In this document: in pieces, positions 7,940-57,038 of the stretch | Layout: each line of letters begins with the position of its first letter | Numbering within the stretch: the stretch's first letter is position 1 | Source: a bacterium | Lineage (GTDB): Bacteria; Patescibacteriota; Minisyncoccia; UBA6257; GWB1-50-10 | Assembly: GCA_030647415.1 (NCBI GenBank) | Contig: JAUSKB010000026.1 | Coordinates: 74,894 to 138,893, forward strand | Reading direction: 5' to 3' | Length of the DNA stretch: 64,000 bases | Translations under genes and position numbers: made by a program | Notes under the pieces: model-generated | Databases searched by the model: none | The model's input: the letters and a program-made list of their open reading frames with translations, nothing else | Told to the model about the DNA's origin: nothing

Positions 7940-8092
7940 GTAATCGCCAATAATGCGAATAGCACTCGGTAATAATGCGAATGAAAGGAGTAATCGCGAA
8001 TAATGCGAATGGCAGAGGTAATAATGCGAATGAAATGCGCATGTATTCGCATTATTACTGAATTTTAATTAGCATTATTAGCGACTACTCCA
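7939..8092. repeat. Family B repeat cluster without cargo (two forward 22+14 units, then reversed units), an 'empty' TIR pair
   Basis: AGTAATCGCCAATAATGCGAAT, GGTAATAATGCGAAT, AGTAATCGCGAATAATGCGAAT, GGTAATAATGCGAAT, then ATTCGCATTATTAC and ATTAGCATTATTAGCGACTACTCC abutting the ATG at 8092. Confidence 0.8.
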
Positions 8093-34404: not shown

Positions 34405-34715
34405 AGTGGCCTCCTTTCATTTTTGTGATTATTGAGTTGTGTATATTCTGGCGCAATTATAGCAGTTTTGTATAAAATTGTCAAATGCGCCGGTTTGTGG
34501 TGCAATCACTGGAGCAAGGCCCCCTTCGTACCTGCATTTCTAGCCTCTGGGCGGTAGGGGGCGCCGGATACCCCTGGCGTACTCCGTTTCACACCCGTAC
34601 CCCGTTCGCCGCCAATCAACCCGGCGACCCCACCCTAGTTCGTTTCCCACCTCCGCCGTCCGCCGCACCCGCCCCCGCCATGCAGTCAGCCTATTCCCGC
34701 GGCGTGCGTTTCAGT

Positions 34716-34758
34716 TGCTAAAATAACTCGACGGCCGTTCTGTTATTTTAGCAGTACT
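34716..34758. repeat. hairpin repeat GTTGCTAAAATAAC-TCGACGGCCGTTC-TGTTATTTTAGCAG (copy 1)
   Basis: 11-bp stem; an inverted-orientation copy lies at 35468-35515; the pair flanks the Cas2-like gene. Confidence 0.75.
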
Positions 34759-34836: not shown

Positions 34837-35463
34837 CTAGACAAGACTCCGGAGTGTGCCGCGTTCGGTCACTGAAAAAATCTGGATGTGTGGAATAAGC
34901 CCAAGTTCGGCCACGTTATCAAGGAGCACCTGCGGGATGACCACTTTCCCGACAAAAACACTCTGCTGCACCTTATGAAAACCGAGCTGTATGAGCACCG
35001 CCCGAAGCCAGTCACGCTTCCGGCGCTCCCGTTCCGGAACATCGAATGCGACGATAACAACCTTCTTCGATGGCTCCCCACGGTACCGGTCCGGGGCATA
35101 GGAAACGGCGAGATTACTACGAAACTCAACCAAACGCTCGAGGCCAAATTTGGTGAGTATGAGCTTCGCCGCGCCGCCGGAAACACGGGTTTCGGCGACA
35201 AGCCCCGTCTTTTTGAGGTGGGTGAGCATACTCCAGTACCGTTGCCACTCGCGGCTCGATTCTTTCGCGAGTTCGCGGTCTCTGACAAGCTCTCCGCGAA
35301 CCCGCTCGAACGATCCGCGCGATGCGCCGCAGGGGAGCACGAGCATCGCGATGCCGAGGTCCATGACACTTAATGCCGCGCCTTCGAGCGCTTCAAGGAT
35401 CGCCTTTGTCTTTGCACCACGCACCACCCGCTGTTCCGGCACTCTTTTCTTCTTTGGCGCCAT
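34837..35463 (-). CDS. winged-HTH + Cas2-like (VapD/Cas2-fold) domain protein
   Basis: 208 aa; the C-terminal VVIVAFDVPERERRKRDWLRAVLIQLGFHKVQQSVFVGKV matches the Cas2 core pattern (YDV..RRLRKV....G.RVQ.SVF); there is no cas1 and no array. Confidence 0.45.
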   Translation of the reverse strand: MAPKKKRVPEQRVVRGAKTKAILEALEGAALSVMDLGIAMLVLPCGASRGSFERVRGELVRDRELAKESSREWQRYWSMLTHLKKTGLVAETRVSGGAAKLILTKFGLERLVEFRSNLAVSYAPDRYRGEPSKKVVIVAFDVPERERRKRDWLRAVLIQLGFHKVQQSVFVGKVVIPQVLLDNVAELGLIPHIQIFSVTERGTLRSLV

Positions 35464-35467
35464 CTTC

Positions 35468-35515
35468 TTAGTATACTCCGCTGCTAAAATTATCCAACGG
35501 CCGTTCGGTTATTTT
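35468..35515. repeat. hairpin repeat GCTGCTAAAATTATCCAACGGCCGTTCGGTTATTTTAGCAAC (copy 2, inverted relative to copy 1)
   Basis: Near-exact reverse complement of the repeat at 34716-34758. Confidence 0.75.
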
Positions 35516-35707
35516 AGCAACTGTCATACTCACCCCTCCGTGTGGTTTCGCGGAGTGTGTATGTAGTGTGCGGCCTCGTGCACCCGGCGCGGTGGTTTCC
35601 GCTTTGACCACAGGGTATGCTGAACTTCAGGCGATACAATGCCCGAGTGGTGAAACTAGCATTCACCCCGCGTCATTTCTACGCTAGACTAATTGTGTAT
35701 AAAGGGG

Positions 35708-35792
35708 GGGCGAGTGGCGGAACTGGCAGACGCGCACGGTTTAGGGCCGTGTTCCGAAAGGAGTGTGGGTTCGACCCCCACCTCGCCCACCA
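35708..35792 (+). tRNA. tRNA-Leu (anticodon UAG), class II with long variable arm, CCA encoded
   Basis: GGGCGAG TG GCG GAACTGGCAGA CGC G CACGG TTTAGGG CCGTG (variable arm) GTGGG TTCGACC CCCAC CTCGCCC A CCA. Confidence 0.85.
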
Positions 35793-44906: not shown

Positions 44907-45623
44907 TTACTTTTTACCTTTTACTACCGCAATCGGCTTCGCGCCGGGGAGCATCAACAACCCGGAACCTTCCATGAGAATCTCCTGGTAGCGCGGATTG
45001 AATTGCCGAATCGTCTCGGGGTCGATGCCGTACCGCGCGGCGATAGTTGTGAGTGAATCGCCAGCTATGACCGCGTAGCGCACGCCGGAAACCGGCAGTA
45101 TGGTAAGTTCAGCGCCGGGACGGATCGTGCGCCCCACGGACAGGTTCGCCCACCGGATCGTCTCCGGCGTTATGCCGAACCGGGCGGCGAGCGCGGCGAG
45201 CGTGTCACCTCGCTGTACACGGTACCGGATGGTCCCGTCCGCTACGGGAATGGTTACGGTAAACGGCATCGCGGCTGCAGTAAGGTCGCTCTCCGTCACC
45301 GTCCCCAGGTCGGGGACAGCGCCTGCCTGTCCGGCCCGCCCAGATGACTCGGTCGGACGGGTAGGCAGCGCTGACAATCCCACCGCACCCGCCCGGATGA
45401 CTCGGTCGGACGGGTCATCGAACGGATTTATCTCGCCTGTCTGCGCAGGCGGGTTTGGAAGTGTTGTTATATCTGAAAATACACCCTCCCCGTCCGACCG
45501 AGTCATCCGGGCGGGCACGCCGTCGTTTTTGGACTCATCCACATAGCTGCTCACAATCTTGTCTGCGGAGACCCCAGAAGCGCCAATAAGGCCTGTAATT
45601 CCCAGGAGAATGAGCGACCACAT
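44907..45623 (-). CDS. LysM-domain protein (two LysM repeats); linker region carries three copies of the 28-bp dispersed repeat
   Basis: YRVQRGDTLAALAARFGI and YAVIAGDSLTTIAARYGI; N-terminal TM anchor. Confidence 0.8.
   Translation of the reverse strand: MWSLILLGITGLIGASGVSADKIVSSYVDESKNDGVPARMTRSDGEGVFSDITTLPNPPAQTGEINPFDDPSDRVIRAGAVGLSALPTRPTESSGRAGQAGAVPDLGTVTESDLTAAAMPFTVTIPVADGTIRYRVQRGDTLAALAARFGITPETIRWANLSVGRTIRPGAELTILPVSGVRYAVIAGDSLTTIAARYGIDPETIRQFNPRYQEILMEGSGLLMLPGAKPIAVVKGKK
45336..45363. repeat. 28-bp dispersed repeat GCCCGCCC(A/G)GATGACTCGGTCGGACGGG, copy 1 (inside the LysM gene)
   Basis: Further copies at 45389-45416 (same orientation), 45490-45518 (inverted), 47774-47801 and 54641-54672 (variant). 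Confidence 0.85.
45389..45416. repeat. 28-bp dispersed repeat, copy 2 (inside the LysM gene)
   Basis: Exact core match. Confidence 0.85.
45490..45518. repeat. 28-bp dispersed repeat, copy 3, inverted (inside the LysM gene)
   Basis: CCCCGTCCGACCGAGTCATCCGGGCGGGC. Confidence 0.85.
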
Positions 45624-45770
45624 GACCGCCGATCGGAGAAAACCATTCCCGAATGGCTTAAGGTTACGTAGAATCGTACTGATAAACTAATGGTATCATG
45701 AAAAAGGATAGAAGAGAAGAAAAGAGCAAGGAGAGAAGAAAAATGACAAAGGCGCAATTTGAATAGTGTG

Positions 45771-45895
45771 TACACAAATGTCTAACAGGGTACACCCTGT
45801 TAGAGTTTTGCACATACTCCGTTATATTCCATATGGATGTTTCAGAAAGACCAATTTCTTCTAGTAAAAAGATGATCTGCAAAACTCTAACAGGG
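45771..45895. repeat. Family A palindromic element, copy A11, plus an extra solo right-half immediately upstream
   Basis: CACAAATGTCTAACAGGGT-ACACCCTGTTAGAGTTTTGCACA ... TGCAAAACTCTAACAGGGTAA-ATG (ksgA start). Confidence 0.8.
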
Positions 45896-45898
45896 TAA

Positions 45899-46708
45899 AT
45901 GCGAGCACGAATCGGACAGCATTTTCTGAAAGACGCGAGTGTTGCTCGGCGTATTGTCTGCGCGCTCCCCATCGCCGAGCACGCGACAGTTATTGAGGTC
46001 GGGCCGGGGAAGGGCGCGCTTACCGCATTCCTCGCGGAGCGCGTGGGGGAGGTTCCCGAGGCGGAGCTCGTCTGTATTGAACGAGACCCTGCCCTTGCGG
46101 CGGCGCTTGCCGCTCAATCCCAATCGTGGCGAGGTGTGCTGCCCACCGTACACACCGGCGACGTGCGCACACTCCTCCGCGAGGTCGTCCGGAGCGTTCC
46201 CCGGACGCGGCGGTACGCCATCATCGGGAATCTGCCGTACTACCTCACGGGGCACCTCTTCCGAATCCTCGGCGAGCTGCCGCGCCTGCCTGAGGCGGCG
46301 GTCTTCATGGTGCAGCGGGAGGTCGCGGAGCGGCTTGCCGCCGTGCCGCCGTGCATGAACATGCTTGCGGCGAGCGTGCAGGCGTGGGCGAAACCCTCCA
46401 TCCTATTCCGTGTGCCACCATCCGCATTCTCGCCGAAACCGAGCGTGGAAAGCGCGGTGGTGTCGCTTGTCGCGGTAAGAACCACCCCGCCACCTGCAGA
46501 ATACTATCGGGCCGCCCGGACACTCTTTCGGCAACCACGGAAAACAATTTTGAATAACCTTGCGGCTGAAATCGGGCGCACGGACGCCGTGCGCATCCTC
46601 ACCGAAGCGGGGCTCAACCCATCGGACCGTCCGCAGACACTTTCACCGGACAAGATTCTTTTGCTATCAAAACACCCGCCGTTCACCGAAGCGGCGGGTG
46701 ATGTTTGA
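45899..46708 (+). CDS. rsmA: 16S rRNA (adenine1518/1519-N6)-dimethyltransferase RsmA/KsgA
   Basis: GQHFL and VIEVGPGKGALT motifs. Confidence 0.85.
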   Translation: MRARIGQHFLKDASVARRIVCALPIAEHATVIEVGPGKGALTAFLAERVGEVPEAELVCIERDPALAAALAAQSQSWRGVLPTVHTGDVRTLLREVVRSVPRTRRYAIIGNLPYYLTGHLFRILGELPRLPEAAVFMVQREVAERLAAVPPCMNMLAASVQAWAKPSILFRVPPSAFSPKPSVESAVVSLVAVRTTPPPAEYYRAARTLFRQPRKTILNNLAAEIGRTDAVRILTEAGLNPSDRPQTLSPDKILLLSKHPPFTEAAGDV

Positions 46709-46718
46709 GTAGGTTCCG

Positions 46719-47630
46719 TTATCGTCCGATCTCTCGCCCAACCTCAATAGTTCCCATTCCAGCCTCTATGGCCTGTCGAGCACGAAGGTTTTTAATCTGA
46801 ATATCTATACTTTCAATCTGTGTATTGCGCTCATTTTGCAAACGCACGACCTCCGCGGTACTCACTCCCGCTTGGCCACCCTGCCGCACGCCGGTCGCAC
46901 CGTGGCGGCCGGTTATGCGCAACCTATCGGCCTTAATTCGATCGAGCCGCGCTTGGTATCGAAGCGTGTCGGACTTCGTTGGATTGGTTTTTTCTGCAAA
47001 CGCGGCCTCTTCATCTTTTCGTCGTGCTTCGAGATCGAGGAGTGCGGATTCAGTACCCGACTGGTTCTCTATCGTACCGGCGCCGAGTTCGGTTCCGGTC
47101 CAGATGCCCAACCGCACCATAGCTGCCTCATAATCGCCATTTATGCGAACTTTTTGCGCCTCAAGTTGATTGATTTGCGCCTCAAAATTTCTGTTCTGTT
47201 CCGCCCGTTGCCTTACAACTTCGCCAGTTCGGCGCGCTGTCTCCCAAAAACTTCCCTGGGCGTGCGCCTGGCTTACCGCCGCATCAAGCGCAAATGCCGC
47301 AGAAACGGATGCGATGAGTGTTGCCACCCGCCGCAGAGCGGTGTTGCCATGCTTGGTCGGCGCAAGCTCCGTCGCAAGGGAGTAGGCGGCGGCTTCGTTT
47401 CGGGCTTCAGCCGGAGCTGTTTCATCCTTCGCAATGGCATCAACCACGATACCGTCTGTGACGGCTTCGGTGAGTGCCGGCATTTCGAGAGTCGCGGCCT
47501 CCTGCTCTAACGCCGCGGCCTCTTCCTCCACTCGGCGAATCTCAAGTTGTAGAGCCTCCGGGTCAATGTTGGGAACCTCCCGCTCCATCTCCATGGGTAT
47601 GCCTCCCGTGTCCTCGATTATATTTTTCAT
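46719..47630 (-). CDS. hypothetical coiled-coil protein
   Basis: About 304 aa from the internal Met; A/E/Q-rich heptad-like segments. Confidence 0.4.
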   Translation of the reverse strand: MKNIIEDTGGIPMEMEREVPNIDPEALQLEIRRVEEEAAALEQEAATLEMPALTEAVTDGIVVDAIAKDETAPAEARNEAAAYSLATELAPTKHGNTALRRVATLIASVSAAFALDAAVSQAHAQGSFWETARRTGEVVRQRAEQNRNFEAQINQLEAQKVRINGDYEAAMVRLGIWTGTELGAGTIENQSGTESALLDLEARRKDEEAAFAEKTNPTKSDTLRYQARLDRIKADRLRITGRHGATGVRQGGQAGVSTAEVVRLQNERNTQIESIDIQIKNLRARQAIEAGMGTIEVGREIGR

Positions 47631-47646
47631 GGTTTGTATTCGTTCA

Positions 47647-47973
47647 ATTTCCACAGAGCGACCTGACCCGTTCCCGCTCGCGGGCGAGGACCTTCCGGAG
47701 GCCATCGAGGTCGTTCTGTACCGCACGCTTTGCCTTCAAGCTTTCGACGAGCGTGTTCATACCTGCCCGATCGGCCCGCCCGGATGACTCGGTCGGACGG
47801 GCAGGCGGGCCCGAGGCGTCATGTTGATATACCTTAATGAAGCGGCCGAGCGTCTCTTCACTCGCGTCCGCGAGCCGGTCCTTCAGTACGCCCTGGTCCG
47901 CCGGCGAAAGCCCGGCGCCGCCCACGATGCGGAAGGCGACCGCAAGCGCATTCGCATTCGGTTGTGGATTCAT
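47647..47973 (-). CDS. hypothetical protein containing an in-frame copy of the 28-bp repeat
   Basis: 109 aa; ...PPARPTESSGRADRAG... is encoded by the repeat at 47774-47801. Confidence 0.35.
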
Positions 47974-48128
47974 GCGACAACGGTACCACGAATACCGGTA
48001 AAAATCAATGGGACATTCTAGGCCATAAATACTGTTACCAAGAGAGGAGTGTATAGCTCATAAATGGGTTACCGTGGTCGTCTATGACTATAGGAATAAA
48101 AAACATCAGATTATGATGGTTCCATGTT

Positions 48129-48170
48129 AAGACTTGTCATTCTGGACGGCCGTCCAGAATGACAAGTCTT
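48129..48170. repeat. perfect 42-bp palindrome without spacer (AAGACTTGTCATTCTGGACGG|CCGTCCAGAATGACAAGTCTT)
   Basis: 21-bp arms, exact reverse complements; within an AT-rich noncoding stretch (about 47990-48350). Confidence 0.85.
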
Positions 48171-48579
48171 TTCGCCGTGAACTTACAAAGAGTCTGGAAA
48201 CAAAAGGCGCCGTGCCCGAAGGCCGTGCGCTCGTGATTCTGTTCACGCAAGACGTTCTATGTCCTGCATAATCTCCGACCTCTCCCGCTTAAGAAGTTGT
48301 TTTGCCTCGCCGCGGAGGGGTTCGATTCACGCCGGGTTTCCTGATTAAAAACGGATTTGTCCGGCCGCCCCCCCGAGCGCCGTGGCAGCAATGGTCACCA
48401 CAAGCGCAACCACAAAATGGATGATGACCGCGGGAACGAATGACCTCGTCCGGTAGGCGATGAAAAGTATATCGAAGTCGAACTTCGATGATGGAGGAAA
48501 AAACTGCTGAACATAGTTCTTTCCTTTATCTCTTTTCTCTTGTCTTTTTTCTTCTATCCTTGTGGTACACTGAAGGCAT

Positions 48580-48951
48580 ATGCGAACGGCTACGCTCATT
48601 GCTACGGTTTCGTTTGTTCTCATTGGTGGCGTTTTTTTACTGCCGAGACCGACACAGGCAATTCCTCTCCCATTCGGGGGGATGGTTATATGGAATATAT
48701 TCCCTCTTGTTGAGTGCTTCGGAAGCGACCCAAACCCGTTTCTCATCGCGCCCGCGGGCTTTGCGCCGCCTGGCCCCTACGGCCTCATCCCTGCCACCGT
48801 ACGGTACCTCATGAGCGTGCCGCTCCACCCTGGGTCGTTCATTCTCGGGTGGTATGACTCGCCGCCGCAGGGAATTTGTATAGCCGGCGTCCCGCCGTTC
48901 GGCTTCCCATTCTTCGCGATGCCAGTGCTCACCATCGGCTCTTCATTGTAG
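48580..48951 (+). CDS. small secreted P/G/F-rich hypothetical protein
   Basis: 123 aa with a signal peptide. Confidence 0.4.
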   Translation: MRTATLIATVSFVLIGGVFLLPRPTQAIPLPFGGMVIWNIFPLVECFGSDPNPFLIAPAGFAPPGPYGLIPATVRYLMSVPLHPGSFILGWYDSPPQGICIAGVPPFGFPFFAMPVLTIGSSL

Positions 48952-49051
48952 GGGCGTCTCGCGAAGAGATATTTCTGTCCGCACGGCAACGGAACGCCTG
49001 AGGAAAAATGTGTATAATGACAGGGACGCTGGCGTTTCCGGCTTTCCCCCC

Positions 49052-49858
49052 ATGCATCCGTATCTCAAACCAGGAATCATACTCGCGGCGGGCTTCTCTC
49101 TTATGCTCGTGCTGTCGTTTCAAGGTTCACTAACCGTACGCACGGGGGGGGGGGCCGTGGACGCGCAACCGAAATCATGGGAACGTTCCCTGACAACCGC
49201 ACCGGCGACTCCCACCACAGCGGCGGGGGGGGCGGCCGACTCTCGGAGTCGGGGTGACACGAGGGGAGGGGAGAACTACACAACAAACCTCACGGACCAG
49301 CTCACCGCTTCGTACGTGAATCAGGTCACCGCGCTCGGCGAACGCGGTATCGCGAATGGAAAACTGGCGGCGCCGAACCAGCAGCAAATCGAGTTGGTGC
49401 TCGCGCAGAATATTTCCACCTCGCTCACGGCGCCGAAAATCGCCGAGCGCGATCTCTCCCAGAGCGCGGGGGGGGCGGCCGACGAGGTGCGATACTTCAA
49501 CGAACTCGGCGCGGTAACGAGCCGGATATTCGGCGAATCTCCGGTCACTGTGTTCGACGCGCTCCGCGAGTACCAGGAGGGGGGGGACGCGGGTTCGTTT
49601 CAGAAACTCGCCAGCATCGCCGAGTTGGCGTCCCAGGAACTGCGAGTGGTAGCCGTTCCTCCGCGGTACCTCGCGCTCCACATGGAGCTCGCGAACCTCT
49701 GGGAGAAGAAGCGTGTCGCCTACACCGCTATTGTGGAAACGGCGAGCGATCCACTCAAGGCATATCTCGCAGTCCAGACGCTCCCCGAGCTCACCACGAA
49801 AACTGACGAGCTCCAGGCCCGCTATGTCGCCGTAGCGGATGGTCCTGCACTACCGTAG
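49052..49858 (+). CDS. hypothetical membrane-anchored protein containing several poly-G tracts
   Basis: TM anchor; four G8-G11 runs inside the ORF (49144-49154, 49225-49232, 49468-49475, 49579-49586) plus another G8 run at 50838-50845 in the adjacent gene; each encodes Gly-Gly-Gly. Confidence 0.5.
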   Translation: MHPYLKPGIILAAGFSLMLVLSFQGSLTVRTGGGAVDAQPKSWERSLTTAPATPTTAAGGAADSRSRGDTRGGENYTTNLTDQLTASYVNQVTALGERGIANGKLAAPNQQQIELVLAQNISTSLTAPKIAERDLSQSAGGAADEVRYFNELGAVTSRIFGESPVTVFDALREYQEGGDAGSFQKLASIAELASQELRVVAVPPRYLALHMELANLWEKKRVAYTAIVETASDPLKAYLAVQTLPELTTKTDELQARYVAVADGPALP

Positions 49859-49863
49859 TTTCC

Positions 49864-51564
49864 ATGCGACACTTCATCATCAGTTTCCTCATCGCCGGTA
49901 TTGTGACCGCCGGGCTCTTCGTGCCGCGCGCTCCCGCGAGCGCGCTCGCGGTTCCCGTGTTCGACCCCGCACATACCGGAACCACCGCTGGCGGATGGGT
50001 TGCACAAGCGGTGCGCTTCACGCTCGAGCAAACGCTGAAGGCGTTGCTCGAAACACTGAAAAAACGCCTCCTCGACACCATGACCGACCAGGTCATCACC
50101 TGGATTCAGGGCGGAGGGGAGCCGCGGTTCGTCCAAAACTTCGGCGACGTCCTGGGCGATGCGGGGAGCATCGCGGTGGACGCGACCGTCCGGGAGCTCC
50201 GGCAGGTGGAGTTCTTCGACCCCGCGCTCCTCTCCATGCTCGAGGGAGGGGTTGCCGCGGGCGCCACGCGTTCGTTCGTGGAACGCCTCACCCCCACCCT
50301 CCCCGACGTCGTGCCGAGCGTGCAGCAGTTTCGGGGGAACTTCGACGCGGGCGGCTTCCTCGCCTACCGCGAGCTCTTCAACCCGCAGAACAATCCGTGG
50401 GGACTCCAGATGCTCGTCGAAGACGAGGTGATCCGGAAGGCGGCGGCGGAAACAGAGAAGGCAAAAATTGAACAGGTCGCCGAGCAGGGGTTCGAGGGAC
50501 AGAAACGGTGTCTCCTCTGGACGCGGAGCGTCCTCATGCAGAGCGGACCTGATGTGGAGCAGACCTTTCAGCCGGGAGACACGGGGTGGCTCGAACAGTT
50601 CTACAACCTAAAGACACCGCCGACTGGCCGGCCCCTCCCCCCCAATCCGGTACCGGGAATCTACCCCTGGCTCTGCGAACCGGGGAACCAGGAGCGCACG
50701 ACGCCGGGGAGTGCAATCGCCGAGGGGGTGCGCCGGTCGCTTTTCACCGACGTTGATTATGTCGCGAACTCGGATAGTCTCGGGAAGTACCTCGCCGCCA
50801 TCATGGACGCGGCCTTCAACCGCATGATCCGCGACGCGGGGGGGGCGGCGGAACGTCTCGTCCGAGGTTTTGCGGGGCTTGAGAAGTCACAAACCGGACG
50901 ACCGCAAAGCCAACAATTTATCCCTCCCCTGCCGGAAACACCATCGGGCCTCCTCGAGGGGTCACAAGGGGGGTACACCTCGGGGACTATTAGCATCCAA
51001 CAGCAGGAAATTGCGGCGCTGAACGATATGAAGCAGCTACTCCTCTCGACGATAGACCGTTTGAAACAGAACCTGACGACGATCCGCCAGACACTCATTG
51101 ATACGCTCGCGGCAGACCAGGCGGGGCTCCGCGCGCTCACCTATGGTTTAACACCGCGGGGGCTCTTCCAGTGCTTCACGCAGGACCCCCTCGACCCCAC
51201 CAGAACGCCGCCGCCCAGCTTCGTGCCGCCAAACTTGAGTATCACCACTATTTCCTCGCACGTTTCCCAAATGTCGCTCGCGGCGACCACGAGGAGGAAT
51301 GATATCAACACGAATAAAATCCCATCCTTGAACGCGACCACCACGCACGCAAACATTCTCCGTGGTCAGATCGCCGCAACCGTGCTCCCGAGAGATCGCG
51401 ACCTCCTCATGAACTCGTTCAGGGTGTCGGTACAGAACCTGGAGAATGATATCGGCTCGTTCGAGGGGTCCGTACAAACCGTCGCTCTGGCATCACAAAC
51501 ATTCAAAAATAACACGCTGCAGAACCTCGCCGAGTGCGAGCGGACCCGCCTCACCCCCCTGTAA
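49864..51564 (+). CDS. secreted hypothetical protein (first gene of the T4SS-like cluster)
   Basis: 566 aa; signal peptide; no catalytic motif. Confidence 0.5.
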   Translation: MRHFIISFLIAGIVTAGLFVPRAPASALAVPVFDPAHTGTTAGGWVAQAVRFTLEQTLKALLETLKKRLLDTMTDQVITWIQGGGEPRFVQNFGDVLGDAGSIAVDATVRELRQVEFFDPALLSMLEGGVAAGATRSFVERLTPTLPDVVPSVQQFRGNFDAGGFLAYRELFNPQNNPWGLQMLVEDEVIRKAAAETEKAKIEQVAEQGFEGQKRCLLWTRSVLMQSGPDVEQTFQPGDTGWLEQFYNLKTPPTGRPLPPNPVPGIYPWLCEPGNQERTTPGSAIAEGVRRSLFTDVDYVANSDSLGKYLAAIMDAAFNRMIRDAGGAAERLVRGFAGLEKSQTGRPQSQQFIPPLPETPSGLLEGSQGGYTSGTISIQQQEIAALNDMKQLLLSTIDRLKQNLTTIRQTLIDTLAADQAGLRALTYGLTPRGLFQCFTQDPLDPTRTPPPSFVPPNLSITTISSHVSQMSLAATTRRNDINTNKIPSLNATTTHANILRGQIAATVLPRDRDLLMNSFRVSVQNLENDIGSFEGSVQTVALASQTFKNNTLQNLAECERTRLTPL

Positions 51565-51570
51565 ACGCCA

Positions 51571-53883
51571 ATGCGCACGAAACGAACGGTAAGCATCTTC
51601 CTCGCCGCCGCGCTCCTCACCGCGGGCGGGTTCTTTGCTGTAACTAATACTGCACACGCGCTGATGTACGGCAATAATTCTAATCCTATTAAGCAGTGGC
51701 TAGTAGGTACAGGCCTCGACATCCTCCAGGCGTTCGCTACCGGCATTTCGTACATCCTGAACTTCCTTGGGGGTCTCGCCTTCGCCTTCGGGAACATGCT
51801 GACCCAGACGATGTTGGCACTCAACTACCAGGTGCTCGACAGTTCGAACACCATCGTAACCGTCGGGTGGGGCATCACGCGGGATGTGGCGAACCTCGGC
51901 TTCGTCCTCCTCATTATCTTGGTCGCGCTCGCGACCATCGTCCGCTACCCCTCGGAGTACCAGGCGCAAAAGCTCCTGCCCCGCCTCATCGCCGCCGCCC
52001 TCCTTGTGAACTTCTCGATCGCCATCGTAACGCCGCTCATTGATTTTTCGGACACCTTGACGCAGAGCTTCGCATCGCGTATCGGTGGCGATGATTTGCC
52101 CGGCATTCCTGGGTCCGGATTCGTCGGGCGAATCTCAAATGCCTTCGGCCCCCATCGGCTTCTTATCCCCCCTGCGGGAGGTTTACCTGAACCGGTAGGT
52201 TTCAATACTTTTAGCAAGGCGTTCCTCACGACCGTCGGCGGGCTCTTTTTCAGCTTCATATTCACCTGGCTCGCCGCCCTCGTCATGCTCGCCATCGCCT
52301 TCATGCTCTTCCTCCGGTATGTGCACCTGACCTTCCTCCTCGCCATCGCGCCTATTGTCTGGCTCTTCTGGGTCTTCCCGGGGCTCGAGAAGCACTGGAG
52401 CACCTGGTGGAGCGATTTCCTCAAGTGGGTTTTCTTCGCGCCCGCGGTCATGTTCTTCATCTACCTCGCGGTTACGGCGATGGATGCTATGGGATCGATG
52501 CCTGTCGAGGGGCTCACGGGGTCGGACTTCTTTGAAACCTTTATTCTTTCGATCATCTCGCAGGGAACCCAGATGGCCGTCCTCGGCGCCTTCCTTGTCG
52601 GCTCGCTCATCGTCGGCCAGAAGTTCGGCATCGCCGGGGCGGGGGCGGCATTGAACATCGCAAAGGCGGCAAAAACGCAGGGGCTGAAGCTCGCGGGCCA
52701 GCGGGTGAAGCTCGCGGGGCGGGCGGCGGCGGGGAAGGCTAGTACGGTACTCAAGGGCGGTCTCGAAGAAAAGGGTTTGATGAAGTACCCGAAGAAGGGG
52801 TTGAATCTCATGGGCCGTGGCACCTCGTTCGTGCTCGGCGGTGGTAAAAAGTTAGATGAGGCATTAAAGGTAAAGGACACTGATTCGGGTTTCAAGAAGC
52901 TTGGCAAGCGTTTTGCGGGTGGTGTTCTTGGCGTCACTGGCGGACGCGCCCTCTTGAAGGGTGCGGGTGGGCTTGAGAAAACACTCACTACCGCCTCCGG
53001 CCGCGACGTGAAGGTGGACTCGGTCGGCGGCGCGATGTTCAAGACCGTGAAGGGGGAGTTCCTGAAAGAGATGGGCTTTGAACAGGAAAAGCCTGAGAAG
53101 ACGACGGACGATCATGTGAAGGATCTGAAGGATGTTGTGAAACAGAAAAAAGCATTGAAAGACAAGGGCGCGCTCACGCCAGAATCAGAGAAGGAGTGGG
53201 ATAAGAAGATCGAGCGGGCGAAGGGGATGGTCCGCAACTCGCTCGAGCGGCCAGGGACCCCAGAGGGGTTGGACAGGCAAATCGAGCAGCTGAAGAGCAA
53301 GCAGGCGGAATTCTACGACCCGAAGAATGGCCTCGATGGCAGCGTATTCGACGACCTCATTAAGGAAAGGGTGATTGAGCGGGATCGGATCATAGAACGC
53401 GAGGGCAGGAAATCCGACGCGACACGCGAGGTTGAGGCGAAAATAGGCGAGCTGAACGGAGGGCGAATCGCCGCGCTGAAGGCGGGGGACCCGGAGGTCA
53501 CCGTCAAAACAAAACAGACGCAACCGGACGGCACCGAAGTGGAGGTTGAGCGGCAGCAGAAGTTGAGTTCGCTGTTTGATGAACAGATCGTGGCCGCGGA
53601 AAAAATCCGAACCGCCCTATTCGACGTCGACGAGCGACTGCGAAAGAACGAGCCGTGGAAGGACCAACAGCTCCAAATGGGGCTTGAAAAACTTCGAGAC
53701 AACATTACGGGCTTGAACAAGGGAATCACCGGTCTCTCCAGGGTCGTTGACAACACGAAAAACGCCGCGTTAGTGAAGCCGGGGTTGATCCAATGGGAAC
53801 CGTTTAAACAAACAGAAGAGAAGGCTAGCGGCGGTGCGAATAAGAAAGGAGATGGTGGCACCGTAGACACCGACACCTCGTAA
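51571..53883 (+). CDS. VirB6/TrbL-like polytopic membrane protein with a long K/E/G-rich C-terminal tail
   Basis: 770 aa; signal peptide, at least 6 TM helices over the first 400 aa, then a hydrophilic repetitive tail. Confidence 0.5.
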   Translation: MRTKRTVSIFLAAALLTAGGFFAVTNTAHALMYGNNSNPIKQWLVGTGLDILQAFATGISYILNFLGGLAFAFGNMLTQTMLALNYQVLDSSNTIVTVGWGITRDVANLGFVLLIILVALATIVRYPSEYQAQKLLPRLIAAALLVNFSIAIVTPLIDFSDTLTQSFASRIGGDDLPGIPGSGFVGRISNAFGPHRLLIPPAGGLPEPVGFNTFSKAFLTTVGGLFFSFIFTWLAALVMLAIAFMLFLRYVHLTFLLAIAPIVWLFWVFPGLEKHWSTWWSDFLKWVFFAPAVMFFIYLAVTAMDAMGSMPVEGLTGSDFFETFILSIISQGTQMAVLGAFLVGSLIVGQKFGIAGAGAALNIAKAAKTQGLKLAGQRVKLAGRAAAGKASTVLKGGLEEKGLMKYPKKGLNLMGRGTSFVLGGGKKLDEALKVKDTDSGFKKLGKRFAGGVLGVTGGRALLKGAGGLEKTLTTASGRDVKVDSVGGAMFKTVKGEFLKEMGFEQEKPEKTTDDHVKDLKDVVKQKKALKDKGALTPESEKEWDKKIERAKGMVRNSLERPGTPEGLDRQIEQLKSKQAEFYDPKNGLDGSVFDDLIKERVIERDRIIEREGRKSDATREVEAKIGELNGGRIAALKAGDPEVTVKTKQTQPDGTEVEVERQQKLSSLFDEQIVAAEKIRTALFDVDERLRKNEPWKDQQLQMGLEKLRDNITGLNKGITGLSRVVDNTKNAALVKPGLIQWEPFKQTEEKASGGANKKGDGGTVDTDTS

Positions 53884-53967
53884 TCTAATCTCAACAAGCA
53901 GAGGCAAGCTGAGGCCGAGCGGCAGCGGAAAGCCGGTGGAGCAACACCAAATCCATAACCCATTTAT

Positions 53968-54067
53968 CCTGTTAGAAGTTTACAGATAGTTATTTATATG
54001 GAAAATATTATTGTTATGCAAAATAAAATTGTGAAGTGGCGGTGTTTGCGCGTAAACTTCTAACAGG
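53968..54067. repeat. Family A palindromic element, copy A12; the right end is followed directly by the ATG at 54068
   Basis: CCTGTTAGAAGTTTACAGATAG ... TTGCGCGTAAACTTCTAACAGG-ATGAACCTC. Confidence 0.85.
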
Positions 54068-55072
54068 ATGAACCTCTCGAATATAACTTTTGAGCTGCTC
54101 TCCGAACGGTACGAGGAGATACCGGAACGGTTTCGGGAGCTCCTCGAGTCACCCGGCACAAAAACAACACTCGTGCGCATCGGGGCGCAACACGCGCTTG
54201 ACCACGAACGGCAAACACTCCTTGAGGCGCTGGTCGGTCTTGTCTTCACCGGTTTCCTCTCCCCGGATGACCTCGCGGGGGAGTTTGTCGACCGCCTCTT
54301 CCTGAACTTCGTCCACGCCCGCGCGCTCGCCCGCGAGGTGGACGAGACCTTCTTCGCGCCGCACCGCCGCGACCTCGTTCGCGTCTACAACCCCGTGGGC
54401 GGGGTACCGCAGGGCCCAACCGTCCGGAGTGCGGAACGACCTATGATTGGATTGCCTTCACAAGTAGGAAAGACGATTTCACTTGAATCCATCGGCGCTT
54501 CAGGCGGTAGGGAACAAAAGCTTCCCATTAACGAGGTTGCGGCGCCGCTCGTGATTCTCGGCTCCAGCTCCCCCACCCTCCGCAAACCGATTATTCCGAA
54601 CCGCCCGCCGGAACGCCTGTTTGCCAGCCAGGCAGGCCTGCCTACCCATCCGACCGAGTTATCCGGGCGAGCCGGACAAACGGTTTCGGAGAAGCCGGTG
54701 TACCACTCACCCTTTTCCTTCCGGTTCCCGTTCCGCTCACCGCAGGCGGCGCGTACCCCGCTGGGCGACTCCACGGGACCGACCGCGACCGTCCGATTGC
54801 CCGGCAGTGCGGCACCAGCGCAGAAGAAGGATGGGCTTCATATTGTCCACTATGCGGAAACACGCGGGAGACTCGGCCCGCCGCTATCAACCGGAAAGGG
54901 GGGGGTAGTGAACCTGGACCAGCTGGGGGCGCAGCAAAGAAAAGAGACAAGAGAAAAAGGACAAGAGACGCCCATCGCACCGACAACCGACAACCGACAA
55001 CCGACAACCATCCCGAAACCACAGCCGAAGATCGATGGGAACACCATAGACCTCCGGGCAAATAAACTCTAA
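54068..55072 (+). CDS. hypothetical Pro-rich protein containing an in-frame variant of the 28-bp repeat
   Basis: 334 aa; starts MNL, identical 5' end to the 28020 gene; PTHPTELSGRAGQT is encoded by the repeat at 54641-54672. Confidence 0.5.
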   Translation: MNLSNITFELLSERYEEIPERFRELLESPGTKTTLVRIGAQHALDHERQTLLEALVGLVFTGFLSPDDLAGEFVDRLFLNFVHARALAREVDETFFAPHRRDLVRVYNPVGGVPQGPTVRSAERPMIGLPSQVGKTISLESIGASGGREQKLPINEVAAPLVILGSSSPTLRKPIIPNRPPERLFASQAGLPTHPTELSGRAGQTVSEKPVYHSPFSFRFPFRSPQAARTPLGDSTGPTATVRLPGSAAPAQKKDGLHIVHYAETRGRLGPPLSTGKGGVVNLDQLGAQQRKETREKGQETPIAPTTDNRQPTTIPKPQPKIDGNTIDLRANKL

Positions 55073-55125
55073 ATCCGAAACTCTAAATCCTAAACAAGCA
55101 CGAAATTCTAAACTCTAAACCACTG
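55066..55125. repeat. Family C repeat (CTCTAAATCCGAAAC(C/T)CTAAATCCTAAACAA...), forward arm C1
   Basis: Inverted partner at 55516-55580; together they bracket the four-helix-bundle gene. Confidence 0.8.
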
Positions 55126-55129
55126 CATT

Positions 55130-55495
55130 ATGGAACCGAGCGTGGGCTTGAAACGGTATGATTTGGAGGCGCGAACGCTTCAATTTACAAGGGATGTCAT
55201 TTCGTTCGTTTCCGCCCTTCCCCGGAGTATTGCCAATATTGAAATCATCAAACAGCTCATCCGGGCGACTGGTTCGGTGGGAGCGAATTATATAGAAGCG
55301 AATGAGTCCGTAAGCAGAAAGGACTTTCTCTTACGAGTTAAGATTTCCAAAAAAGAGTCGCGAGAGGCAATATACTGGTTGGAGCTCGTACAATGCTCAA
55401 ATGAGCAATGTGAAGTTAGGAGGCGTGAATTGATCCGAGAAGCGACCGAGCTCATGAAAATTCTCGGTTCAATCGTCGAAAAATCATCTCGGTGA
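55130..55495 (+). CDS. four-helix-bundle protein (TIGR02436 / 23S rRNA intervening-sequence protein; Avd-like)
   Basis: 121 aa; RATGSVGANYIEANESVSRKDFLLRVKISKKESREAIYWLEL matches the family core; lower GC than neighbours. Confidence 0.7.
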   Translation: MEPSVGLKRYDLEARTLQFTRDVISFVSALPRSIANIEIIKQLIRATGSVGANYIEANESVSRKDFLLRVKISKKESREAIYWLELVQCSNEQCEVRRRELIREATELMKILGSIVEKSSR

Positions 55496-55515: not shown

Positions 55516-55580
55516 CCTGTTTCGGATTTGAGATTTGGAATTTGTTTAGGGTTTAGGGTTTCGAATTTAGAATTTATCTG
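55516..55580. repeat. Family C repeat, reverse arm C2 (GTTTAGGGTTTAGGGTTTCGAATTTAGAATTT)
   Basis: Reverse complement of the C1 motifs. Confidence 0.8.
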
Positions 55581-56079: not shown

Positions 56080-56089
56080 AATAAGGTAA

Positions 56090-56228
56090 GCTCTAAATCC
56101 GAAACCCTAAATCCTAAACAAATTCGAAATTCCAAACACACTCATAAATGATGATGAAACATGATGCCATTTCGAATTTCGTGCTTGGAATTTGTTTAGA
56201 GTTTCGATATTAGGATTTAGAATTTCTA
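56090..56228. repeat. Family C palindromic element C3 (forward and reverse arms, no cargo)
   Basis: GCTCTAAATCCGAAACCCTAAATCCTAAACAAATTCGAAATTCCAA ... TTGGAATTTGTTTAGAGTTTCGATATTAGGATTTAGAATTTC. Confidence 0.8.
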
Positions 56229-56893
56229 TGGAAAAGGGTCTCCCCACACAATCATTTGTCGCCGTCAAAGAGGTTCGAAACGGCATCGTCCACCTGAAAG
56301 ACGGCGGCCTGCGCCAGCTCCTCATCGTCTCCGGCGTGAACTTCGACCTGAAGGCGGAGGAGGAGCAGGCACTTATTCTGAACACCTTCCAAAATTTCCT
56401 GAACACGCTCGACTTCACGATGCAGTGCTTCATCCATTCCCGGAAGGTGAATGTGGACACCTACCTGGACCGCATGCGCTCGCGGCAGCTCGAGGAACCG
56501 AATGAGCTCTTGAAGATCCAGATTGCCGAGTATATCGACTTCATCGCCGCGTTCGTGGACCAGAACGCCATCATATCAAAAACCTTCTTTGTGGTGGTCC
56601 CGTACGATCCGCCAGTGACGTCCGGAGCGGCGACCAAGGGCGTGCTTGGCTTCTTCAAGAAACGCGAGGCGGCGACGGTCATCGCGGACGAGGCGGCAAC
56701 GCTCCAGGAGCACTTGAAGCAGCTCGAACAGCGGGTGACACAGGCGACCGAGGGCCTCCTCCAGATCGGGCTACGGGCAGTCCGGCTCCGCGACGACGAG
56801 ACCATCGAGTTGTTCTACAACCTCTACAATCCGGAACTGGTCGAGAAGAAGGGGCTCGACATAGCAAAGCCAGACAAAGCCGGAAAATCCTAA
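56228..56893 (+). CDS. virB4: VirB4/ConE-family ATPase, N-terminal fragment (split gene)
   Basis: 222 aa; IVHLKDGGLRQLLIVSGVNFDLKAEEEQALILNTFQNFLNTLDFTMQ fits the CagE/TrbE/VirB4 N-terminal domain pattern; 222+587 aa equals a normal VirB4 length. Confidence 0.5.
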   Translation: MEKGLPTQSFVAVKEVRNGIVHLKDGGLRQLLIVSGVNFDLKAEEEQALILNTFQNFLNTLDFTMQCFIHSRKVNVDTYLDRMRSRQLEEPNELLKIQIAEYIDFIAAFVDQNAIISKTFFVVVPYDPPVTSGAATKGVLGFFKKREAATVIADEAATLQEHLKQLEQRVTQATEGLLQIGLRAVRLRDDETIELFYNLYNPELVEKKGLDIAKPDKAGKS

Positions 56894-57012
56894 GCACGAA
56901 ACCCTAAATCCTAAACAAACCCGAATGTTCCAAATCCGAAACGGTGCGCATGCGTTTGTGGTTTCGTGCTTCGATATTGTTTCGGATTTCGATATTAGAA
57001 TTTAGGATTTCT
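56893..57012. repeat. Family C palindromic element C4, lying between the two virB4 fragments
   Basis: AGCACGAAACCCTAAATCCTAAACAAACCCGAATGTTCCAAATCCGAAAC ... GTTTCGTGCTTCGATATTGTTTCGGATTTCGATATTAGAATTTAGGATTTCT. Confidence 0.8.
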
Positions 57013-57038
57013 AACACAGAACTTATACCACTACGACC

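Follow-up and report, generated by a model that had tools for sequence, protein, structure and literature searches.

Introduction

In-frame palindromic inserts have until now been an oddity, known from Rickettsia and from a few genomes rich in REPs. RPE-1, a Rickettsia palindromic element (RPE) of about 100-150 bp, was reportedly described by Ogata et al. in 2000, and to our knowledge RPEs are confined to Rickettsia. The small dispersed repeats (SDRs) of heterocyst-forming cyanobacteria, which Elhai et al. reportedly described in 2008 (Genome Res 18:1484), are said to be mobile according to their precise presence and absence; we know of no mechanism or enzyme that moves them, and of no report of SDRs from outside the Nostocaceae. 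The mobile GC clusters and the 'byp' inserts of yeast mitochondria are organellar and eukaryotic, and the byps are skipped by the ribosome.

The REPs are divided into the GTAG and CGTC super-families, and some of them are located inside ORFs, including tRNA synthetase and DNA repair genes (PMC3733652, Di Nocera et al. 2013). RPE-4 and RPE-6 are themselves classed as CGTC-type REPs (PMC3733652). Some REPs lie inside small palindromes, and those inserted within RAYT genes leave the reading frame intact; REPs are suspected of being mobilised in trans, and the CGTC REPs have no known transposase (PMC3733652, PMC3116915, PMC6006769). Their basal stem of 7-20 bp is fully paired, with a loop of 2-5 nt, and they are described as species-specific (PMC3733652, PMC6006769). 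RAYTs of subclass 2.6, from Bacteroidetes, and of class 3, from Planctomycetes, go with repeats that are atypical, weakly structured and without GTAG (PMC6006769). Among the SDRs, SDR5 targets a palindrome, HIP1, which it enters precisely between bases 3 and 4 (PMC4390886); the SDR features considered below were also drawn from PMC5861425 and PMC4390886.

Here we analyse a dispersed repeat in a 64,000-nt window, i.e. the whole stretch of DNA under study. All named relatives of RsmA, which is encoded nearby, belong to the Patescibacteria/Parcubacteria, so the window's assignment to the CPR bacteria holds. We regard it as probable that the repeat is non-autonomous, ultra-short mobile DNA, comprising a 27-nt quasi-palindrome (the 27-mer) and a related palindromic element of ~21 nt.

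Copies in the window and their absence from orthologues

The initial annotation had noticed a 28-bp repeat, CCCGCCCGGATGACTCGGTCGGACGGG, three times in a LysM gene (two direct copies, one inverted) and once in each of two other ORFs. With up to 3 mismatches allowed, we found five copies of this 28-mer in the window where chance predicts 0; the baseline of 100 dinucleotide shuffles of the window gave no match at all, so the repeat is real. All five copies are intragenic, they are distributed over 3 ORFs, and they are confined to 9.4 kb of the 64 kb. The conserved unit is 27 nt (CCCG...CGGG), or 9 codons, and not 28 nt. The count that sets this boundary rests on the four bases left free by the search pattern: in 125 copies from many genomes these are CCCG in 87-98%, and conservation ends at the preceding base, which is G in only 70%.

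The LysM gene (44907-45623, -) codes for a membrane-anchored protein with two LysM domains (Pfam LysM, 5.6e-17), and its ORF encodes PTRPTESSGRAGQAG, DDPSDRVIRAGAVG and GVPARMTRSDGEGV. Copy 1 (CCCGCCCAGATGACTCGGTCGGACGGG, 1 mismatch) is found at 45335-45361 (+), where the 28-mer matches 45334-45361 with 1 mismatch; its antisense reading in the LysM linker is RPTESSGRA. Copy 2, which is exact, occupies 45388-45414 (+) and reads PSDRVIRAG in antisense; the single mismatch of the 28-mer here (45387-45414) is the extra 5' base. Copy 3 is exact and inverted (45489-45515, -; 28-mer match 45489-45516, 0 mismatches), and its sense-frame reading is PARMTRSDG. Copies 2 and 3 together form a perfect 27-bp inverted repeat with 74 nt between them, and the mRNA region that contains them folds at -138 kcal/mol (z -8). 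The inserts sit in a linker with the membrane anchor on one side and the LysM domains on the other, the stretch in which the orthologue alignment is variable and gapped. The closest orthologues, P0002/L056 and P0003/L057, are syntenic and have 75-76% amino acid identity over the alignment, and all three 9-aa segments are missing from both. The junction of copy 3 is the cleanest: both orthologues have a gap of exactly 27 nt there (GGTGTG^GAAAGG), and the target site is not duplicated.

The TAGGCAG that often follows the repeat, as had been remarked before, does not belong to it. It forms the right-hand arm of another palindromic element, CCTGCCTGTCCGG|TAGGCAG(G), which has ~21 nt and in which the 27-mer is nested. 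Around copy 1 the composite extends over 45322-45368 (+), with the left arm at 45322-45334 and TAGGCAG at 45362-45368. At this site L056 has CTGCCTACCGGTCAGGC without the 27-mer, and L057 has neither the 21-nt element nor the 27-mer. The outer 21-mer around copy 1 folds well as DNA (z -3.8).

The same arrangement is seen in the second host gene, a 109-aa ORF (47644-47973, -) that encodes ARPTESSGRADRAG and for which no Pfam match was obtained. Copy 4 is exact (47775-47801, +; 28-mer match 47774-47801, 0 mismatches) and is nested in a 48-nt composite insert (47761-47808, +) with a 21-nt outer element (ACCTGCCCGATCGG ... CAGGCGG). The orthologues in L057 (98 aa) and L059 have a clean 48-nt (16-codon) gap at the insert position, equal to 21 + 27 nt. 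The third host gene is a 334-aa ORF (54068-55072, +) that encodes PTHPTELSGRAGQT and carries its inserts in a variable middle region. Copy 5 is degenerate (CTCGCCCGGATAACTCGGTCGGATGGG, 3 mismatches); it is located at 54645-54671 (-), with the 28-mer match at 54645-54672 (3 mismatches), and reads HPTELSGRA. It is common to the relative L123/P0072 (84% amino acid identity over the alignment), the GCGAG change included, and is missing from the more distant P0074-76. Copy 5 is, as far as these relatives indicate, an older insertion than the other copies in the window. A window-specific 21-nt palindromic element (GCCTGTTTGCCAGCCAGGCAG, 7 codons, LFASQAG) at 54615-54635 (+) adjoins the copy-5 composite; an exact 7-aa/21-nt gap stands opposite it in L123, and the element boundaries are uncertain by a few bases.

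The translations given in the initial annotation proved correct in all three ORFs, and its view of a mobile nucleotide repeat that enters genes in frame is borne out by the orthologues without the LysM segments and without the 48-nt block of the 109-aa ORF. It had named in advance what should refute this view, namely orthologues with the same peptides encoded by unrelated DNA; the comparison was run and the view survived. Both micro-elements moved after this particular CPR lineage left its nearest sampled relatives, and therefore the system is, or was recently, active. Mobility is inferred here from presence and absence between relatives, and precise excision may account for the difference at any single site.

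Fold and sequence family

Although the ends CCCG...CGGG are self-complementary, as had been pointed out, the pairing is weak. The 27-mer alone gives DNA folds of -4.8 and -6.5 kcal/mol (z +0.1 and -1.0), no better than shuffles, and its 8-bp stem, which encloses a loop of 11 nt, contains a C·A mismatch that becomes a G·T wobble in the opposite strand. Compensatory changes in a symmetric 27-mer hairpin were looked for across the family and none was seen. A simple symmetric hairpin model, supported by neither folding energy nor covariation, was rejected.

Relatives of the 27-mer have the same arms and different centres. In this family, column 7 covaries with column 25 (C-G 10, U-A 8, A-U 2, G-U 1); this is one covarying pair among 22 related sequences, and its level was reached by 0 of 500 shuffles. 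The arms are laid out as T1 T2 ... T1' T2', with the tetramers CCCG-CCNG ... CGGR-CN'GG. The G+C content of the element is 74%, compared with 32-57% in its hosts. The 27-mer is free of stops in five of the six frames, and the remaining frame has a TGA.

Distribution outside the window

Bacteroidota, anammox Planctomycetota, Paceibacterota and Saccharibacteria together have about 110 non-redundant sites with the 27-mer. The underlying 55 + 63 loci come from Bacteroidota (three isolates among them: Indibacter alkaliphilus, Arthrospiribacter ruber and Poritiphilus flavus), Scalindua/Brocadiaceae, Paceibacterota and Saccharibacteria. The element is thus not specific to CPR bacteria, being sequence-identical in at least three other lineages. 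As this census was an exact-pattern search, the invariance across phyla is partly imposed by the search. The same orthologous insertion was recovered from 8-9 independent metagenomes.

Among the 55 genome matches there was no Rickettsia, alphaproteobacterial or cyanobacterial genome. A scan of IMG/VR with the 27-mer gave 0 matches, and BLAST against the PLSDB plasmids and the INPHARED phages gave none. The Rfam searches, at a permissive threshold for the region and at the gathering threshold for the window, returned only chance hairpin-shaped matches and two tRNAs. The initial annotation knew of no earlier report from CPR bacteria, and when the literature was searched in full text for the DNA, the RNA and four of the peptides that it encodes, no papers came up.

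Reading frames and target sites

About one third of the non-redundant copies (36 of 110) are found in ORFs of 200 codons or more, at a depth of 40 codons or more, which shows that the 27-mer lands in coding sequence too. These intragenic copies are 18 sense and 18 antisense and use five frames, i.e. all the stop-free ones, so that the different frames and orientations noticed in the window recur elsewhere; many other copies are non-coding. The commonest intragenic frames outside the window give ARPDDSVGR (n = 13) and RPTESSGRA (n = 11). None of the 36 intragenic copies interrupts a long gene in the TGA frame, for which the probability under neutral frames is about (5/6)^36 = 0.0014; five candidates for an alternative frame (89+65 to 133+77 codons) all proved to lie within longer ORFs of another frame. 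The genes hosting the 27-mer, several of which are essential, include those for PheS, penicillin amidase, SBP_bac_5, methylmalonyl-CoA mutase, ArgRS, GatB, TsaD and asparaginase. In penicillin amidase and SBP_bac_5, the homologues have a gap opposite ARPDDSVGRG, and the reading of the gene resumes in frame on both flanks of each insert.

The target sites are not random in structure. Of the sites, 14.7% lie between the arms of an inverted repeat of at least 7 bp, compared with 2.3% of control positions; for direct repeats of this minimum length the values are 11% and 3.5%. In anammox genomes, GTAG-type REPs occur either empty (GTAGGGTGGATTA^AGCGAAGCGAATCCACC) or filled with exactly the 27-mer at the position marked ^. 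The data show a preference of the 27-mer for the stem/loop junctions of other hairpin repeats and of its own relatives (nesting), and for short tandem arrays. Target-site duplication is absent from four independent comparisons of empty and filled sites, in which a one-base (G) ambiguity of the junction remains. These alignments show the 27-mer entering DNA, so far as sequence comparison can establish it, as an exact 27-nt unit, at cleanly readable junctions and with the target not duplicated.

Neighbouring genes and candidate enzyme

Neither the 64-kb window nor the 6 kb beyond it yielded a transposase. In an all-against-all clustering of the ORFs around about 118 loci, no gene was adjacent with any consistency; the clusters that recurred consisted of generic signalling or ABC proteins, of orthologous loci, and of Y1_Tnp (6 loci). 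Y1_Tnp/RAYT is the only family of mobile-element type that recurs near copies (6 of about 110 loci). Members of the 27-mer's own family are located at most 170 nt upstream of the RAYT gene in L001 and L117, and L005 is a canonical GTAG REPtron in which GTAG REPs flank the RAYT gene. The RAYT neighbours are mostly from anammox bacteria, where the GTAG REPs that serve the 27-mer as hosts can explain them. In 0.85 Mb of loci, no long autonomous element was found whose separated ends are the half-sites. A link to a four-helix-bundle (23S_rRNA_IVP) gene near the tandem arrays was also considered, and was given up as unsupported, with only 2 matches.

The 6 kb beyond the right end (L125) contain dnaA/dnaN and no further copies. 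The whole window is located on one replichore, with dnaA/dnaN just past its right end and a negative GC skew throughout. On this replichore the window copies are 3 forward and 2 reverse, a distribution that a lagging-strand-restricted, IS608-like mechanism would not predict, although n is only 5.

The following mechanism may be proposed. A sequence-specific enzyme would recognise the conserved arms and carry out copying and insertion in trans, and this recognition, together with horizontal spread of the enzyme, would account for the near invariance of the 27 bases across phyla. As to the enzyme, our leading guess, and a tentative one, is a HUH tyrosine transposase that acts on single-strand DNA and is of the RAYT/IS200 kind. 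The survival of the 27-mer in genes is explained by its length of 9 codons and its five open frames: copies in tolerant loops and linkers persist as 9-aa peptide inserts, and copies in the TGA frame are purged.

Comparison with known systems

The 27-mer is classed with the micro-repeats of REP/RPE/SDR type. The behaviour of the Rickettsia palindromic elements, to which the initial annotation had likened it, is matched insofar as it is a dispersed palindrome-like repeat that inserts in frame and without disruption into working genes, in several frames, with orthologues that do not have it. It is not an RPE by sequence or size: it has 27 nt and no sequence similarity to RPEs, has one and the same sequence in different phyla, and usually lies nested within another repeat.

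The 27-mer belongs to the 20-40 bp size class of the REPs. However, there is no unpaired GTAG or CGTC at the foot of its hairpin; the reverse strand has CGTC at bases 3-6, but inside the stem. The A/T-first stem of 8-9 bp, the 4-5 nt loop and the CCA tail of the CGTC families (PMC3733652) are absent. Its 8-bp stem and 11-nt loop do not make the stable stem-loop of a REP, and one sequence occurs in at least three phyla, whereas REPs are described as specific to a species or genus. That the 27-mer inserts into REPs suggests a separate layer. The SDRs, compared by description, are similar in their unit of 21-27 nt and in their precise insertion relative to matching sequence, often inside palindromes; the lack of a cyanobacterial genome among the 27-mer matches argues against membership. 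The yeast GC clusters and byps are likewise short, GC-rich, palindrome-like mobile inserts in the coding sequence of AT-richer genomes, but the frame statistics of the 27-mer argue for translation of the insert, unlike a byp.

A MITE mobilised by a DDE transposase has 70-300 bp, terminal inverted repeats of 15-30 bp and a target-site duplication, whereas the 27-mer has 27 nt in total. Insertion without target duplication is shared with the IS200/IS605 elements. A counterpart to their hairpin with guide tetranucleotide is suggested by the T1 T2 ... T1' T2' layout, with the one covarying pair (bases 7/25) in 22 sequences; their strong bias in replication orientation is not seen in the small sample of 3 forward and 2 reverse copies. 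The DGR, CRISPR, attC and dif-like readings were dropped: the variation is not specific to adenines, arrays are absent, as are a reverse transcriptase and an integrase, and the copies occur singly, within genes. PARCELs (PMC2996958), which are tandem coding repeats of 25 residues, were set aside as another phenomenon.

Discussion

The evidence for mobility has to be weighed against other explanations. The repeat may be a cis element that serves the host, i.e. a site bound by a conserved dimeric protein, a site of recombination or inversion, or a signal formed by RNA structure, which spread by recombination or gene conversion. The inverted pair in the LysM gene could then flip the 74-nt segment between its members, and function would keep the sequence invariant. 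Such a role agrees with 27 bases that are almost invariant in hosts of 32-57% G+C, with the coordinated variation of the arms, with the very stable mRNA hairpin of copies 2 and 3 and with the clustering of the five copies in 9.4 kb. Nevertheless, we consider it improbable, since orientation relative to the host genes is random (18:18), the copies are located at non-homologous positions in unrelated enzymes and within other repeats, close relatives manage without them, and no Rfam family matches; moreover, old copies decay by point mutation, as selfish insertions do and functional sites do not. It is also quite improbable, in our view, that the 27-mer is not cut and pasted but written from an RNA or DNA template, at gaps or hairpins, by an enzyme of polymerase type such as a reverse transcriptase or primase-polymerase. 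Sharp unit boundaries without target-site duplication, the lack of a long autonomous version with these ends in 0.85 Mb of loci and the identical element in distant phyla would all follow. On the other hand, no reverse transcriptase or similar gene recurs beside the copies, the usual residue of such writing (5'-truncated or tailed copies) was not seen, and relatives with the same arms and different centres suggest that copies act as donors.

A conserved peptide module, with the similarity selected at the protein level, was suggested by the three of five window copies that yield RPTESSGRA or a variant of it and by the two frames that dominate the intragenic copies elsewhere. This explanation is scarcely credible, as it is refuted by the exact absence of the segments from orthologues; in addition, five frames are used, many copies are non-coding, and the nucleotides are fully identical even at positions where a synonymous change would cost nothing. 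An artefact of assembly or binning or a contamination (for instance an adapter or spike-in, or sequences joined chimerically where they share a k-mer) may come to mind because most carriers are metagenome-assembled genomes and the composition of the 27-mer is foreign to its hosts. The chance of this is very small given that the 27-mer is present in the three isolate genomes, the same orthologous insertion comes from 8-9 independent metagenomes, the same gene continues in frame on both flanks of each insert, and the copies bear lineage-specific mutations.

The 27-mer, unchanged in the distant phyla of CPR bacteria, Bacteroidota and anammox Planctomycetes, offers fresh, datable insertions and clean empty sites. 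If the reading as mobile DNA holds, this would imply conserved and transferable machinery that moves a DNA unit far below the size of any transposon end pair, and the movement of tiny repeats becomes testable since donor, target and product junctions are all defined. It would also provide a route for small peptide inserts into essential enzymes of streamlined genomes, and the 27-mer would be a marker of recent horizontal contact among the carrier lineages. A bolder claim is conceivable, although we are rather doubtful of it: that the 27-mer and the ~21-nt element, both a whole number of codons long, represent the smallest class of bacterial mobile DNA, kept almost invariant across Patescibacteria, Bacteroidota and anammox Planctomycetota by a horizontally shared trans-acting enzyme that reads T1 T2 ... 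T1' T2', colonising the hairpin loops of other repeats as parasites of parasites and writing 9-aa inserts into essential proteins (PheS, ArgRS, GatB and TsaD among them) by a mechanism distinct from those of REP/RAYT, MITE and IS. For annotation, the case calls for caution, because a 9-aa segment that recurs identically in unrelated proteins can be a DNA parasite and not a motif. The window also contains a possible 30-nt relative with the same arms (CCCGCCCGACTGGACAGTCGTTCGGGCGGG) at 24638-24667 (+), inside ORF 24491-24934.

Repeat copies in the window

When the 28-bp repeat of the initial annotation was searched with up to 3 mismatches, five sites were found in the window, at 45334-45361, 45387-45414 and 47774-47801 on the plus strand and at 45489-45516 and 54645-54672 (the latter with 3 mismatches) on the minus strand; 100 dinucleotide shuffles gave none. 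All five lie inside ORFs, as had been claimed, and the peptides quoted in that annotation were correct when the host ORFs were translated. The repeat was thus confirmed, but its length has to be revised: conservation spans 27 nt, CCCGCCCGGATGACTCGGTCGGACGGG, or nine codons. This 27-mer is stop-free in five of the six frames, with a TGA in forward frame 3. Copies 1-3 reside in a gene (44907-45623, minus strand) for a protein with two LysM domains (Pfam LysM, 5.6e-17), copy 4 in a 109-aa ORF (ORF109; 47644-47973, minus strand) and copy 5 in a 334-aa ORF (ORF334; 54068-55072, plus strand).

All five 27-mers, along with three or more of the roughly 21-nt elements, are confined to 9.4 kb (45322-54679) of the 64-kb window. 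Between this cluster and the dnaA/dnaN region, which is just past the right end of the window, lie about 10-20 kb. Because the probability of such 27-mer clustering under uniform placement is about 0.002, the clustering suggests that the element hops locally or that the region is permissive. A 30-nt palindrome with arms as in the 27-mer family, CCCGCCCGACTGGACAGTCGTTCGGGCGGG, occupies 24638-24667 (10 codons) of ORF 24491-24934, and it may be a further in-frame family member.

Comparison with orthologues

The LysM protein has its closest orthologues in P0002 (221 aa, locus L056) and P0003 (200 aa, locus L057), with 75-76% identity across the alignment. L057 is syntenic with the window, with RsmA, a 295-aa ORF and a 98-aa ORF adjacent. 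The named relatives of the RsmA adjoining the LysM gene are all Patescibacteria/Parcubacteria (Harrisonbacteria, Jorgensenbacteria, Paceibacterota), and the CPR assignment of the window is therefore supported.

PARMTRSDG, DPSDRVIRA and RPTESSGRA are exactly what the LysM orthologues are without. Had these peptides been encoded there by unrelated DNA, a conserved protein motif would have been the better explanation; clean gaps were found instead. In the DNA alignment, the orthologues are cleanly missing the 27 nt of copy 3 (GGTGTG^GAAAGG), and the target is not duplicated. Copy 1 is enclosed by a palindrome of about 21 nt, with CCTGCCTGTCCGG on one side and TAGGCAG on the other, so the TAGGCAG said to follow the repeat often is present, but at copy 1 it belongs to the enclosing palindrome. 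Since this palindrome is unoccupied in L056 (CTGCCTACCGGTCAGGC) and missing from L057, the alignments indicate two successive insertions at the site. Orthologues of ORF109 show a single clean 48-nt gap, which is the combined length of the 21-nt outer element and the 27-mer nested in it. The degenerate copy 5 is common to the window and its relative L123 (84% aa identity across the alignment), including a GCGAG change, and is missing from more distant homologues; the 21-nt element beside it (7 aa, LFASQAG) is found in the window only and not in L123. Judged by these alignments, the window segments are inserted DNA of differing ages rather than a conserved motif, because the orthologues show exact gaps or share the older copy 5, and the 27-mer and the 21-mer have evidently each moved after these lineages diverged.

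Distribution and reading frames

The exact pattern CCCRGATRACTCGGTCGGAYGGG was scanned in one representative genome per GTDB species, which gave 55 loci, all of them outside the source genome; JGI metagenomes added 63. The carriers in the GTDB scan are Chitinophagaceae, Saprospirales, Cyclobacteriaceae and other Bacteroidota (including the isolates Indibacter alkaliphilus LW1, Arthrospiribacter ruber and Poritiphilus flavus), anammox Scalindua and Brocadiaceae, one Paceibacterota MAG and one Saccharibacteria MAG. No match was found in viral contigs, plasmids or phages, and a literature search for the sequence or its encoded peptides returned no publication. Flanking sequences are unrelated from locus to locus. 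The four bases 5' of the pattern, left free by the search, are CCCG in 87-98% of 125 copies; further 5' conservation ends, except for a G at -1 in 70%. The element has a G+C content of 74% compared to 32-57% for the host contigs. Unseeded relatives in the fetched loci differ chiefly in the central three bases, and further relatives keep the arms with another centre (e.g. CCCGCCTGAAAGACCTTGTCGGGCAGG).

After removal of redundancy 110 copies remained, and 36 of them sit 40 or more codons inside ORFs that are 200 codons or longer. These 36 copies cover every one of the five open frames, reading ARPDDSVGR (13 copies), RPTESSGRA (11), PARMTRSDG (5), PVRPSHPGG (4) and PSDRVIRAG (3), and are divided equally between sense and antisense (18 each). 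No long gene interrupted in the TGA frame was found among the copies, for which the probability under neutral frames is about 0.0014.

The host genes are ordinary and frequently essential: ArgRS (Scalindua), TsaD (Saccharibacteria), GatB, methylmalonyl-CoA mutase, penicillin amidase, family-5 solute-binding protein, asparaginase and peptidase M28. PheS of the Paceibacterota MAG (L037) has two separate insert sites, an exact 27-mer (5801-5827) in a Cys-x-x-Cys ... Cys-x-x-Cys segment and a 54-nt head-to-head pair of 27-nt relatives (5425-5480) between the conserved DTFW and LLRTHTS. In two penicillin-amidase homologues ARPDDSVGRG occurs at differing positions, each opposite a gap in the other protein, and in the solute-binding protein it is likewise opposite a gap in a homologue.

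Insertion sites and structure

In anammox genomes the 27-mer sits in the loop of GTAG-type REPs, and both versions exist: the empty REP is GTAGGGTGGATTA^AGCGAAGCGAATCCACC, and the filled one has exactly the 27-mer at ^, without duplication. Another position of the same REP type is taken by a different 27-nt relative (L122, L005); in Brocadiaceae L005 (794-920) a GTAG REP beside a RAYT gene is so filled and its partner is empty. Relatives of the 27-mer can themselves carry it at their stem/loop junction, as CCCGCCTGAACGGCTTGG[27]TCGGGCAGG, whose outer parts together make 27 nt, and as CCCGCCTG[27]AACGAATCAGTCGGGCAGG. In Scalindua L001 the ArgRS gene contains a nested pair of 27-nt units (54 nt, 3310-3363) and has a RAYT gene next to it, on whose flanks a different hairpin, CGTTCCCA...TGGGAACG, occurs (4730-4815). 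Inverted repeats of at least 7 bp straddle 14.7% of element sites and 2.3% of control positions, and direct repeats of at least 7 bp 11% and 3.5%. Short tandem heptamer arrays are hosts as well; these occur in Bacteroidota and resemble the AT-rich short-period arrays of the window.

The ends of the repeat had been noted as self-complementary. Alone, the 27-mer has a weak fold (-4.8 kcal/mol, or -6.5 for the reverse strand, in which a C·A mismatch becomes G·T), no better than shuffles on either strand, whereas the 21-mer folds well (z -3.8). No compensatory change in a fully symmetric hairpin was found across 22 family variants. Pairing of bases 5-8 with 24-27 holds in 96.6% of cells in these variants, and covariation is seen between positions 7 and 25 (C-G 10, U-A 8, A-U 2, G-U 1), matched by none of 500 shuffles. 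The arms would thus comprise two tetramers in tandem and then the complement of each, with the order unchanged (T1 T2 ... T1' T2'), a suggestive layout that is based on one covarying pair among related sequences. In the LysM coding region, copies 2 and 3 (45388-45515), separated by 74 nt, are perfect 27-bp inverted repeats of each other, which accounts for the strong predicted fold of the mRNA linker (-138 kcal/mol, z -8). The pair could affect translation or mRNA stability, or let the 74-nt segment invert.

Proposed mobilization and relation to known elements

The copies show insertion that is precise, unit-length and without target duplication, into preferred hairpin loops, palindromes and tandem arrays, with nesting and in both orientations. 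The 27-mer has been recently active, old copies decay and the reading frame filters the copies. DDE-type MITE transposition is excluded by these features, which are compatible with enzymes working on single-stranded or extruded DNA. The leading though tentative candidate for mobilizing the 27-mer in trans is a HUH Y1 transposase from the RAYT/IS200 superfamily that would be sequence-specific. This is favoured by the recurrence of Y1_Tnp, alone among mobile-type families, near copies (6 loci, of which five are anammox or anammox-like), by family members just upstream of the RAYT gene in L001 and L117, and by the atypical, weakly structured repeats without GTAG published for RAYT subclass 2.6 (Bacteroidetes) and class 3 (Planctomycetes) (PMC6006769). 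On the other hand, RAYTs may be mere companions of GTAG REPs that the 27-mer has invaded, L005 being a canonical GTAG REPtron. No Y1/RAYT gene was found in the window or in the 6 kb beyond it, and copy orientation is 3:2 although the window is a single replichore adjoining dnaA/dnaN with negative GC skew throughout.

Frame-preserving intragenic palindromic repeats are already known as RPEs in Rickettsia, and REPs occur inside tRNA-synthetase, DNA-repair and other genes of several species and within small palindromes (PMC3733652). Tiny repeats (21-27 nt) that were considered mobile have been described in Nostocaceae; among them, SDR5 shows precise insertion within the HIP1 palindrome (PMC4390886, PMC5861425). 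The 27-mer behaves like RPEs, REPs and SDRs, and it is classed among such micro-repeats. The early proposal of a mobile, RPE-like repeat entering genes without disrupting them is supported and extended by the orthologue gaps and the in-frame copies in other genomes; the likeness to Rickettsia elements holds for behaviour and not for the defining features of that family, and those of GTAG or CGTC REPs and of MITEs are likewise missing. For CGTC REPs the transposase is not known (PMC3733652). REPs are described as species-specific (PMC6006769), whereas the 27-mer is found across phyla. It is distinguished by near-invariance across phyla, codon-length units and nested insertion into other repeats.

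Other repeats in the window

A motif pair in inverted orientation, TTTACCCTGTTAGAAGTTTACA ... TGTAAACTTCTAACAGGGTGAA, whose arms are separated by about 50-90 nt, recurs in at least 11 intergenic regions (812-846/899-941, 943-977/1027-1069, 18204/18292, 20409/20498, 27906/27995, 32144/32230, 32267/32353, 37996/38082, 41285/41481, 45764-45818/45869-45897 and 53956/54043). The downstream arm adjoins start codons (ATG 45899, ATG 54068), Rfam gave no match, and the pair may be a common promoter, operator or 5'-leader element. Cyclobacteriaceae repeat modules (L008) carry a CTGTTAG...CTAACAG hairpin after the 27-mer, whose likeness to this pair may be coincidence.

Short-period AT-rich arrays flank small genes (6851-6895, 7939-8033, 55063-55113, 55520-55580, 56087-56230 and 56884-57015). 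Arrays of AGTAATCGCGAATAATGCGAAT bracket genes for a PDDEXK_3 nuclease (6887-7300) and an RNase_H_2 exonuclease (7364-7936), and TTTAGGGTTTCGAATTTAGAATTT-type arrays lie on both sides of a 23S_rRNA_IVP four-helix-bundle gene (55130-55492) that sits as an insertion within a type-IV-secretion-like cluster (PrgI, TraG/VirB4-like). A direct link of the 27-mer to this four-helix-bundle gene was examined and is unsupported. Finally, a PaaX_M/Cas2-like ORF (34837-35460) between 43-nt inverted repeats (34712-34754 and 35481-35523; 84% complementary) may be a small mobile cassette, and tRNA-Leu (35708-35792) adjoins it.
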